DNA of 20,642 nucleotides from a virus (lineage: Duplodnaviria > Heunggongvirae > Uroviricota > Caudoviricetes). Each line of letters begins with the position of its first letter. The stretch's first letter is position 1. Location of the stretch: IMG/VR virus record IMGVR_UViG_2690316148_000002. The stretch is one strand, 5' to 3'. Positions 5,585 to 6,885 of the stretch are shown here, one piece after another. The translations under genes and the position numbers were made by a program. The notes under the pieces are model-generated. The model searched no databases. It had not been told where the DNA came from and saw only the letters and a program-made list of their open reading frames with translations.

Positions 5585-5604
<20 letters not shown>

Positions 5605-5878
5605 TCTCCCGCATATTGCCAGCATGGCTTTTAATGAGCCGCTGATGCTTGAACCCGCCTATGCGCGGGTTTTCTTTTGTGCGCTTGCAGGCCAGCTTGG
5701 GATCAGCTGCCTGACGGATGCAGTATCCGGCGACAGCCTGACTGCCGGAGAGGCACCCGCGGCGCTGGCGTTATCCGGTGATGATGACGGACCACGACAG
5801 GCCCGCAGTTATCAGGTAATGAACGGCATCGCCGTGCTGCCGGTGTCCGGCACGCTGGTCAGCCGTACTCGGGGATGA
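5585..5878 (+). pseudogene. C: N-terminal fragment of the head protease/scaffold gene C, interrupted by a frame break
   Basis: A GTG at 5585-5587 begins [24 protein letters not shown]..., matching the lambda gpC N-terminus as I recall it. The frame ends at TGA 5876-5878 after ...VSRTRG, where lambda C reads on. Confidence 0.7.
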
Positions 5879-6885
5879 CCGGTTACAACGGCATTATCGC
5901 CCGTCTGCAACAGGCTGCCAGCGACCCGATGGTGGACGGCATTCTGCTCGATATGGACACACCGGGCGGAATGGTGGCGGGAGCATTTGACTGCGCTGAC
6001 ATCATCGCCCGTGTGCGTGACATAAAGCCGGTATGGGCGCTGGCCAATGACATGAACTGCAGCGCAGGTCAGCTGCTTGCCAGTGCCGCCTCCCGGCGTC
6101 TGGTCACGCAGACCGCCCGGACAGGCTCCATCGGCGTCATGATGGCTCACAGTAATTACGGCGCTGCACTGGAGAAACAGGGCGTGGAAATCACGCTGAT
6201 TTACAGCGGCAGCCATAAGGTGGATGGCAACCCCTACAGCCATCTACCGGATGATGTCCGGGAAACATTGCAGTCCCGGATGGATGCAACCCGCCGGATG
6301 TTTGCACAGAAGGTGTCGGCATATACCGGCCTGTCCGTGCAGGCTGTGCTGGATACCGAGGCTGCAGTGTACAGCGGTCAGGAGGCCATTGATGCCGGAC
6401 TGGCTGATGAACTTGTTAACAGTACCGATGCGATCACCGTCATGCGTGATGCACTGGATGCACGTAAATCCCGTCTCTCAGGAGGGCGAATGACCAAAGA
6501 GACTCAATCAACAACTGTTTCAGCCACTGCTTCGCAGGCTGACGTTACTGGCGTGGTGCAAGCGACGGAGGGCGAGAACGCCAGCGCGGCGCAGCCGGAC
6601 GTGAACGCGCAGATCACCGCAGCGGTTGCGGCAGAAAACAGTCGCATTATGGGGATCCTCAACTGTGAGGAGGCTCACGGACGCGAAGAACAGGCACGCG
6701 TGCTGGCCGAAACCCCCGGTATGACCGTGGAAACGGCCCGCCGTATTCTGGCCGCAGCACCACAGAGTGCACAGACGCGCAGTGACACTGCGCTGGATCG
6801 TCTGATGCAGGGGGCACCGGCACCGCTGGCTGCAGGTAACCCGGCATCTGATGCCGTTAACGATTTGCTGAACACACCAGTGTAA
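5875..6885 (+). CDS. C: C-terminal portion of gene C (S49-type prohead protease region plus scaffold-like tail), in a different frame from the N-terminal fragment
   Basis: 336-aa ORF MTGYNGIIARLQQAASDPMVDGILLDMDTPGG... ending ...AVNDLLNTPV like lambda gpC. Its ATG at 5875-5877 overlaps the stop of the upstream fragment (ATGA). The C region is 19 nt shorter than in lambda by coordinate arithmetic. Confidence 0.75.
   Translation: MTGYNGIIARLQQAASDPMVDGILLDMDTPGGMVAGAFDCADIIARVRDIKPVWALANDMNCSAGQLLASAASRRLVTQTARTGSIGVMMAHSNYGAALEKQGVEITLIYSGSHKVDGNPYSHLPDDVRETLQSRMDATRRMFAQKVSAYTGLSVQAVLDTEAAVYSGQEAIDAGLADELVNSTDAITVMRDALDARKSRLSGGRMTKETQSTTVSATASQADVTGVVQATEGENASAAQPDVNAQITAAVAAENSRIMGILNCEEAHGREEQARVLAETPGMTVETARRILAAAPQSAQTRSDTALDRLMQGAPAPLAAGNPASDAVNDLLNTPV
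6280..6885 (+). CDS. nu3: Scaffolding protein Nu3 (nested in-frame within the 3' part of C)
   Basis: Internal ATG at 6280 in the C frame (MDATRRMFAQKV...), giving a 201-aa product that shares the C stop, as in lambda Nu3. Confidence 0.7.
   Translation: MDATRRMFAQKVSAYTGLSVQAVLDTEAAVYSGQEAIDAGLADELVNSTDAITVMRDALDARKSRLSGGRMTKETQSTTVSATASQADVTGVVQATEGENASAAQPDVNAQITAAVAAENSRIMGILNCEEAHGREEQARVLAETPGMTVETARRILAAAPQSAQTRSDTALDRLMQGAPAPLAAGNPASDAVNDLLNTPV

Follow-up and report, generated by a model that had tools for sequence, protein, structure and literature searches.

The closest described counterpart of the locus analysed here is gene C of phage lambda, whose product, the head protease gpC (NP_040584.1), is an orthologue encoded by a single frame of 439 codons likewise situated between B and D. 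The gene is essential for lambda, CRISPRi knock-down resulting in an EOP of <2e-7 in line with its status as essential in the literature (PMC10695390, Table 1). For overlapping genes, strict termination-reinitiation coupling was found in 13 of 14 tested pairs with a variable dependence on the Shine-Dalgarno sequence, and ATGA is the commonest arrangement for such coupling, i.e. a 4-nt overlap in a co-directional pair within one operon, as also present here (Huber et al. 2019, PMC6728339). The S49 fold and the nucleophile motif of gpC are common with SppA of B. subtilis and E. coli (PDB 3RST, 4KWB, 3BF0), SppA being a membrane-anchored cellular enzyme whereas gpC has 80 extra N-terminal residues and a C-terminal scaffold domain. 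The comparison with SppA was used solely for locating the break within the fold. Defective lambdoid prophages of E. coli and Shigella, such as the "defective prophage pool" of O157 Sakai, reportedly carry point lesions in morphogenesis genes; the prophage analysed here resembles them in having one probably inactivating lesion in a late gene that is essential, in otherwise looking complete, and in residing in a host species rich in IS elements and pseudogenes.

The window, a stretch of 20,642 nt from the IMG/VR record IMGVR_UViG_2690316148_000002, is collinear with lambda over 15.8 kb and contains a gpC-type locus lying between B and D with Nu3 nested in frame at its 3' end. This C shares with lambda C the GTG start overlapping B, Ser166/Lys218 and the Nu3 region, with 95.6% nucleotide identity including the gap and only 10 amino-acid differences outside the lesion. 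In contrast to the one 439-codon frame of lambda, however, it consists of 97 plus 336 codons, lambda 4693-4711 being missing. The translations confirm the split reported in the preliminary description: the first frame, opened by GTG 5585, stops after 97 codons at TGA 5876-5878, and the second, from ATG 5875-5877 to 6885, comprises 336 codons corresponding to lambda gpC residues 104-439. The two fragments are co-directional ORFs with stop and start overlapping in ATGA (5875-5878), a layout which, like TGATG, is typical of coupled overlapping pairs. The features of the region are as follows.

4003..5604, plus strand: portal gene B, intact, 533 codons (ORF list; collinear with lambda B 2836-4437); the identical B gene in sister contigs has a Pfam Phage_portal_2 match, and the B 3' end overlaps the C start by 20 nt, the same as in lambda.
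5572..5587, plus strand: ribosome-binding site of gene C, GAGGAGGAG (5572-5580), and GTG start (5585-5587), read from the sequence; 16S 3'-end duplex -12.0 kcal/mol, spacing 5 nt.
5585..5878, plus strand: N-terminal remnant of C, 97 codons plus TGA (translation; exact ORF on 26 public contigs), made up of gpC residues 1-96, one Gly and the stop; S49 beta-strand 1 (residues 81-91, nt 5825-5857) sits here.
5860..5873, plus strand: deletion scar, the lone surviving repeat copy CAGCCGTACTCGGG (pairwise and multiple alignments with lambda and E. coli prophages).
5875..5878, plus strand: ATGA overlap, TGA closing the 97-codon frame and ATG opening the 336-codon frame (sequence).
5875..6885, plus strand: C-terminal remnant of C, 336 codons (translation; exact ORF on 34 public contigs), with a Pfam Peptidase_S49 match (aa 47-194, nt 6013-6456), the codons of Ser166 (6061-6063) and Lys218 (6217-6219) and the entire Nu3 scaffold region.
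6490..6885, plus strand: Nu3 scaffold cistron with in-frame internal start at gpC Met309 (lambda annotation, residue numbering); strong Shine-Dalgarno AGGAGGG at 6480-6486, duplex -10.8 kcal/mol, ATG at 6490.
6895..7227, plus strand: head decoration gene D, intact (sequence, ORF list, comparison with lambda, sister contigs).

Met309 is presumably the true Nu3 start, as given in the lambda literature and UniProt, and Met239, the other start annotated for nu3 in RefSeq, is ATG 6280 in the window and likewise lies downstream of the break; judged by these coordinates, the Nu3 cistron is untouched by the break in C.

BLAST of the window against lambda (NC_001416) places a single 19-nt gap at window 5859/5860, equivalent to lambda 4693-4711 (CAGCCGGACGCGGGCGCTG), which is the sole frame-breaking indel across the 15.8 kb aligned, the indels in the 3' part of H adding up to zero. 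The shortfall of 19 nt noticed earlier is thereby borne out, also by the alignments with E. coli prophages and intact copies, and the spacing from C start to D start is 1310 nt in the window vs 1329 nt in lambda. In the three closest intact relatives, as in lambda, the ancestral site reads CAGCCGGACGCGGG CGCTG CAGCCGTACTCGGG, and the repeat copies flanking CGCTG (CAGCCGgACgCGGG-CGCTG-CAGCCGtACtCGGG) are reduced to CAGCCGTACTCGGG in the deleted allele, one repeat copy and the spacer being gone. The loss can be placed between 5859/5860 and 5865/5866, its exact point being ambiguous inside CAGCCG, and the deletion ends lie inside the direct repeats. The slippage between direct repeats proposed in the preliminary description stands as a deletion between short repeats, but the perfect 13-mer AGCCGTACTCGGG does not: the copies agree at 12 of 14 positions and only the 6 bp CAGCCG form a perfect core, this core being 9 bp in one E. 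coli strain. Similarly, the ATGA overlap is present at the junction as had been described, but the tetranucleotide is not newly created, as intact C genes already hold it (GGG ATG ACC); the 97-codon frame stops at 5876-5878 because the deletion shifts the upstream frame onto the TGA of this pre-existing ATGA. Residues 97-103 of gpC are lost altogether from both ORFs. Since the frame break is a deterministic fact of the sequence, chance is not at issue.

All of the 23 intact relatives examined have a single continuous 439-codon frame at the break point, and the indel is not a multiple of three, a combination expected of a frameshift pseudogene; the census at the site amounts to 23 intact and 9 deleted copies. 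The alignment suggested earlier as a check shows that intact relatives do not share the window's sequence with a continuous frame but have 19 more bases there. All 40 phage matches listed span 1340 nt vs the 1321-nt query, i.e. have an intact C, as do all 40 E. coli chromosome matches listed. With an 81-nt probe no uninterrupted match to the junction was found, only two-piece 100-nt matches occurring in the best 30 of 3,059 matching E. coli genomes, and the junction was found neither among 185,579 species-representative genomes nor in JGI metagenome contigs, while only one IMG/VR contig carries it. The contigs with the exact 97-aa (26) and 336-aa (34) ORFs bear the NCBI name Shigella sonnei. 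The 336-aa ORF is indexed in 40 blocks of the collection, and at least 24 of its contigs derive from eight assemblies, six of NCBI and two made by Logan from read sets. Between carrier contigs and the window, 0-5 SNPs per 10-16 kb are seen, an identity of 99.97-100%; for the closest relatives with an intact C the count is 7-12 SNPs over 13.5 kb (99.8% identity), the 19-nt gap being their only gap. Three near-identical IMG/VR prophages (UViG_2627853732_000001, 2663762886_000011 and 2667527914_000011), whose late operons match that of the window at 99.8% over 13.5 kb, retain the two repeat copies (CAGCCGGACGCGGGCGCTGCAGCCGTACTCGGG) and the continuous frame, unlike the window. The C genes of L216, L220 and L178, the intact relatives closest to the window, agree with the window C at every aligned base. 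As the nearest intact relatives are only a few SNPs away and C is otherwise identical, the lesion appears to be recent. The deleted group has about 5-6 nonsynonymous and 3 synonymous SNPs, which is far too few for a test of relaxed selection. As judged by these comparisons, the deleted allele shows no sign of spread beyond one Shigella sonnei group.

Within the protease fold, the break lies in a constrained region. The downstream ORF matches Peptidase_S49 (PF01343) with 150.2 bits vs a gathering cut-off of 24.9 (aa 47-194), Ser166 within NCSAG aligns with the MAASGG motif of SppA and Lys218 is present, Ser166 reportedly being the nucleophile of gpC (Medina et al. 2010). No Pfam match was obtained for the upstream 97-aa ORF in the Pfam search. 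Residues 81-298 of gpC align to B. subtilis SppA (3RST; E = 4e-22) from SppA's first residues, and because this alignment begins at the start of chain 3RST_A, GIAVLPVSGTL (81-91) can be regarded as part of the protease domain. Residues 92-103 form a gapped stretch of the alignment between this strand and the next well-aligned segment, and a Pfam CLP_protease match begins only at profile position 30, at gpC residue 107. The whole fold, which in an intact member lies on one continuous frame of ~439 codons, is split here at 5876-5878; with beta-strand 1 and the catalytic core on separate ORFs, the C locus is therefore to be seen as a disrupted rather than an intact member. Describing the downstream part as containing the protease, as was done before, is correct with respect to the S49 match and Ser166/Lys218 but overlooks beta-strand 1; on this alignment the downstream ORF is an incomplete protease module, its beta-strand 1 left on the 97-residue fragment. 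In 22 distinct intact C genes, not one amino-acid change is found in residues 81-103 though pS = 0.10, residues 104-308 have a pN/pS of 0.027, and the N-terminal 80 residues of gpC are under purifying selection as well (pN/pS 0.28). The restart codon ATG 5875 has a 16S duplex of only -4.5 kcal/mol at 0 nt spacing vs -12.0 kcal/mol for the C start and -10.8 kcal/mol for Nu3, so that independent restart at this ATG should be poor.

The data are very probably explained by a recent 19-bp deletion between imperfect direct repeats which frameshifted C in a lambda-like prophage of one Shigella sonnei group, leaving it most likely defective. According to this model, replication slippage or a microhomology-mediated deletion between CAGCCGgACgCGGG and CAGCCGtACtCGGG, 19 bp apart, would be the likely origin, the crossover falling inside the 6-bp perfect core. 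Translation from the normal GTG ends after 97 residues, and the catalytic part with Ser166 and Lys218 is out of frame and severed from beta-strand 1 and the N-terminal 80 residues; the Nu3 scaffold probably continues to be synthesised from the start inside C. As late transcription is presumably Q-antiterminated as in lambda, no polar effect on D or E should arise. The fold position of the break, the invariant residues and the weak restart signal point to a loss of C function, and since lambda cannot do without this head gene, the prophage most likely achieves neither prohead maturation nor infectious particles, unless a co-resident phage supplies gpC. The prophage would then have been inherited vertically and be newly defective, and the lesion is most likely ordinary prophage decay with C now being a pseudogene. 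Of the two outcomes considered in the preliminary description, reinitiation or a pseudogene in a prophage defective for head maturation, the latter is thus favoured on sequence grounds, because the Shine-Dalgarno at the restart is weak and misspaced, the segment at the break is protein-invariant and no spread is seen outside one S. sonnei group.

The lesion would carry no such consequence if ribosomes ending at TGA 5876-5878 reinitiated at ATG 5875 and produced an active gpC 104-439 of 36 kDa, either alone or reassembled non-covalently with the 97-residue fragment of 10 kDa, resulting in a viable prophage. The ATGA overlap between the fragments speaks for this, and as ATGA is the commonest coupling layout and the need for a Shine-Dalgarno varies widely, some 336-residue product is probably made. 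Nothing of the Pfam S49 match, Ser166, Lys218 or the Nu3 region is missing from the downstream ORF, the Nu3-like C-terminus by which gpC is targeted to the prohead is also there, just seven residues (97-103) are lost in a gapped part of the SppA alignment, and the remaining late genes are all intact. About ten gpC molecules are needed per prohead, so even a low yield of this product could suffice, if it works. However, the 336-residue fragment would have to do without beta-strand 1 and without the N-terminal 80 residues with their pN/pS of 0.28, residues 81-103 are invariant in 22 distinct relatives, and the Shine-Dalgarno is weak and wrongly spaced, with GGGG abutting the ATG at 0 nt. Unlike the coupled pairs described (PMC6728339), the pair in the window is accidental, lies within one gene and is not conserved, the arrangement being confined to the deleted allele. 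A split C is seen neither in the listed best matches of 3,059 E. coli genomes nor in phage records nor in the 23 intact copies, all of which have the repeat, and the deleted allele is restricted to near-identical contigs of one species. We therefore consider reinitiation rescue of C possible but unsupported, and a viable prophage maintained by it unlikely. Frame restoration could alternatively occur by leaky -1 slippage, in which, with UGA in the A site, peptidyl-tRNA-Gly slips from GGA (5873-5875) to GGG (5872-5874), ATG 5875 being read next. Slippage of P-site tRNA beside a slowly decoded stop codon is an established phenomenon, G_GGA_TGA lies directly 5' of the restart and is the sole homopolymer run in the interval where both frames are open (5788-5878), its G_GGA part (5872-5875) being the one place where a -1 slip is conceivable, and the arithmetic of the product agrees with the translations and the residue numbering. 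The product would be a near-full-length gpC minus residues 97-102, a fusion of ~46 kDa with the diagnostic junction peptide ...VSRTRGMTGYNG..., and small amounts might suffice for a minor head protein. Against it, a canonical X XXY YYZ heptamer is missing, no stimulator was identified, the layout is an accident of the deletion and not conserved, the six residues removed fall in a segment without amino-acid variation among relatives, and the efficiency is probably very low; such leaky restoration is very unlikely. That the prophage is viable by either route, i.e. by the split pieces reassembling or by a -1 slip at G_GGA_UGA giving gpC without 97-102, is distinctly unlikely.

Two further explanations question the lesion itself. 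The 19-nt gap might be a sequencing, assembly or scaffolding artefact with the real C being intact, for which it can be argued that the window is a draft scaffold with a run of 305 N (150-454) and an N join at 16980. The same junction with the two ORFs, however, occurs in at least 8 independent samples (26-34 contigs), including Logan assemblies built from raw reads with a different pipeline, several carrier contigs are free of N, and a 6-bp repeat would be too short for collapse in a k-mer assembly. The lesion is thus real at the assembly level, and an artefact is highly improbable; the possibility raised earlier that the 19 nt are present in the actual genome is answered by the same junction in independent assemblies, two of them Logan assemblies from separate read sets. 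The two-frame layout might also represent a programmed recoding signal or a natural two-gene C, since it superficially resembles pairs of overlapping genes and a genuine -1 site, GGGAAAG, exists elsewhere in the operon, but the 23 intact relatives, lambda included, have one continuous 439-codon frame and the nearest relatives are identical except for the 19 nt, so that we see next to no chance of this. A slippery heptamer X XXY YYZ was not found in 5780-5880, and a programmed -1 frameshift in C was rejected, there being no heptamer and no conservation among relatives.

Taking the deletion as an inactivating one, the locus would represent an early example of decay, with one microhomology deletion in an essential head gene and 18 other late genes on the window untouched. 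Nu1, A, W, B, D, E, FI, FII, Z, U, V, G, T, H, M, L, K and I have the expected lengths, and apart from the C deletion nothing breaks a frame in about 16 kb of late genes. The intact state of the other late genes fits a very young lesion, and equally a phage still under selection. Compared to the defective prophage pool, one lesion is seen here in ~16 kb, the early region lying outside the window, which suggests a very early stage of decay. For prophage prediction this means that, judged by its genes, the element would be rated complete although it probably cannot assemble heads. The junction GCTGGTCAGCCGTACTCGGGGATGACCGG provides a clean and exact marker for the one Shigella sonnei group with this prophage. 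If the split protease worked, it would follow that the lambda head protease tolerates a break or a loss of six residues between beta-strand 1 and helix 1; this would be a natural example of a split S49 protease, and only then would the locus tell something new about lambda head assembly.

As a draft scaffold, the window has, next to the 305-N run at 150-454, a single N at 16980 that links fragments of two separate prophages. To the right of this N lies a K'-I'-J piece, which belongs to a co-resident lambdoid element. Complementation by this second prophage piece was considered and rejected: in complete chromosomes it is an IS-flanked M-L-K-I-J-lom remnant, and being head-less it cannot supply gpC. 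A full-length J (1165 aa) of the prophage with the split C is seen only in the sister contig L235. The same operon contains a genuine programmed -1 site of G/T (GGGAAAG) at 11257-11263.

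Lambda 13-15830 aligns collinearly with window 1181-16979 at 97% identity, and comparing the ORF list with the lambda annotation shows C being the sole ORF with a length unlike lambda's, K (247 versus 199 codons) aside. The features concerned are the following:

1181-16979: cos, Nu1, A, W, B, C, D, E, FI, FII, Z, U, V, G/T, H, M, L, K, I and the first 325 nt of J
5585-5878: frame from the GTG start of C, 97 codons, stop TGA 5876-5878
5859/5860: site of a single 19-nt gap relative to lambda (lambda 4693-4711)
5875-6885: frame from ATG 5875, 336 codons, corresponding to lambda gpC residues 104-439
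6490: ATG start of Nu3, the scaffold gene nested at the 3' end of C
16980: single N

GAGGAGGAG precedes the C start, and as in lambda this start lies within the end of B. The preliminary description, which reported a C gene split by the loss of 19 nt with an ATGA stop-start overlap, is borne out in coordinates, arithmetic and overlap by the ORFs and the lambda alignment, the 19-nt gap being the only frame-breaking indel across the 15.8 kb aligned. All 40 listed phage matches span 1340 nt for a 1321-nt query, so that C is intact there, and the same span was found for all 40 listed E. coli chromosome matches. With an 81-nt junction probe, 3,059 E. coli genomes had a match, and the 30 best-ranked matches listed were all split, 100-nt ones.

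Because the window is a draft scaffold, interrupted by 305 Ns at 150-454 and by the single N at 16980, we checked for an assembly artefact. The 336-residue ORF was found by exact look-up in 40 blocks of the collection. We read 24 contigs from six NCBI assemblies (GCA_900487965.1, GCA_001259615.1, GCA_001252175.1, GCA_001253895.1, GCA_001252135.1, GCA_001261215.1) and two Logan read-set assemblies (ERR5979253, SRR19126783), all 24 having the 97-codon ORF immediately 5' of the 336-codon ORF. Exact matches to the 97-aa sequence occur on 26 contigs and exact matches to the 336-aa sequence on 34, both products being named 'minor capsid protein C [Shigella sonnei]' at NCBI. Wherever the comparison involves the same prophage, deletion contigs and the window share 99.97-100% identity. 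The same ORFs in so many independent assemblies rule out an artefact and place the deletion in bacteria of one Shigella sonnei group, and this location accounts for the E. coli collection lacking it. The junction was not found in 185,579 species-representative genomes, in JGI metagenome contigs or in IMG/VR, except for one IMG/VR contig with the retrieved part identical to the window. Over 13.5 kb, three IMG/VR contigs with intact C (L216, L220, L178) share 99.8% identity with the window; they differ from it by 7-12 SNPs and by the 19-nt gap, the only gap, with no further difference in C. Within the deleted group we count 0-5 SNPs per contig, too few for a selection test; the lesion in C is young.

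The ancestral site reads GGT CAGCCGGACGCGGG CGCTG CAGCCGTACTCGGG GATGACC in lambda, E. coli A38 and the three nearest intact relatives. A direct repeat is thus present where a repeat-mediated slippage deletion had been proposed, albeit weaker than the perfect 13-mer assumed then: two mismatches separate the 14-nt units, whose only perfect stretch is CAGCCG (the perfect core is 9 bp in strain W284). The window retains the T..T variants of the second unit, which places the crossover inside CAGCCG and fits slippage or a microhomology deletion.

Residues 97-103 of gpC (ALQPYSG) are lost. In the downstream ORF, residues 47-194 match Pfam Peptidase_S49 with 150 bits, and the upstream 97-residue fragment has no Pfam match. 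Among solved structures, B. subtilis SppA (3RST, 4KWB) aligns to gpC 81-298, starting at the very beginning of the crystallised domain, where GIAVLPVSGTL pairs with KIAVLEVSGTI of SppA. Following the usual ClpP/crotonase layout, we take this segment to be β-strand 1, followed by helix 1 (YNGIIARLQQAASDP). The break therefore divides the protein into two polypeptides, one with this strand and the 80 N-terminal residues, the other with the remaining fold including Ser166 and Lys218. Calculated over 22 distinct intact C genes, pN/pS amounts to 0.28 in residues 8-80, 0.027 in residues 104-308 and 0.19 in the Nu3 part, making residues 81-103, the stretch in which the break falls, with 0.00 (pS 0.10), the most constrained segment of C, a value resting on 23 codons and non-independent sequences. 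Nu3 retains its own start with the Shine-Dalgarno sequence AGGAGGG (-10.8 kcal/mol) and is unaffected by the break.

The deletion in C, a gene essential in lambda (PMC10695390, Table 1), is genuine and recent; it shifted the frame and took place between short repeats that match imperfectly. The head protease gene has probably lost its function and become a pseudogene, the prophage most likely being newly defective and vertically inherited in the Shigella sonnei group; as such, the deletion is an ordinary instance of prophage decay. Only a working split or leaky protease would give the case wider interest, and we regard this as very improbable. Some restart product is likely, because ATGA overlaps commonly couple translation with variable Shine-Dalgarno dependence (PMC6728339), although the sole Shine-Dalgarno-like run at the restart ATG, GGGG (-4.5 kcal/mol), directly adjoins it. 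Such a product, lacking strand 1, may or may not fold by itself or reassemble with the 97-residue piece. The zone in which both C frames overlap contains no X XXY YYZ heptamer. A -1 slip of tRNA-Gly on G_GGA beside the UGA, yielding gpC without residues 97-102, is the only conceivable frameshifting route and is speculative.

At the single N (16980), scaffolding has joined two different prophages. On the left side J breaks off at 325 nt; on the right side the sequence picks up again within K (lambda 14483) and passes through I' to reach a second J, with only 87% identity between the two K-I-J copies. The right piece is only 93-95% identical to K-I-J of contigs matching the left part at 99.9% and belongs to another lambdoid element. 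The sister contig L235, having no N, continues straight into a full-length J (1165 aa), which together with this divergence marks the K-I-J duplication and truncated J as assembly artefacts. In the complete 4.8-4.9 Mb chromosomes CP023645, CP019689 (two copies) and CP022455, the counterpart of window 16981-20642 is a head-less lambdoid remnant consisting of a 127-aa ORF, M, L, K, I, J and lom, which has IS3-family and IS1 transposases on its flanks and adjoins a Q-like antiterminator region. As it lacks head genes there, complementation of gpC by this second element is ruled out.

Single-N joins to pieces of other lambdoid tail modules also occur in two sister drafts, L237 (GCA_001252175.1; order L-L-K) and L238 (GCA_001253895.1; truncated L, then Z-U-V at 79% identity), making gene order 3' of M untrustworthy in these drafts. 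Sister contig L236 is identical to the window to ~13 kb and from about 14000 carries another tail module (75-157 differences per 500 nt), the cause being recombination or else a contig switch from one co-resident prophage to another. The gap at 150-454 corresponds to 238 nt of real sequence in sister contigs, which belong to a minus-strand DUF1398 gene of 136 aa; next comes a DUF3950 gene, and cos and Nu1 lie shortly downstream.

The 247-codon K (15281-16024), starting directly after L and also present in sister contigs, results from a 1-nt difference at window 15415, lambda RefSeq lacking one G at lambda 14267. The 3' part of H contains a mosaic patch diverging from lambda (14041-14160) with compensating indels summing to zero. 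The end of G carries the G/T programmed -1 frameshift heptamer of lambda, GGGAAAG (11257-11263). In the deletion-bearing sister contig L242 (Logan SRR19126783), A>C at window 11262 gives GGGAACG (G:K135T), which would damage gpGT synthesis; this change may reflect a second hit to a prophage in decay, or else faulty assembly. A 549-codon open frame antisense to J (18905-20554, minus strand) is most likely a by-product of J codon composition.
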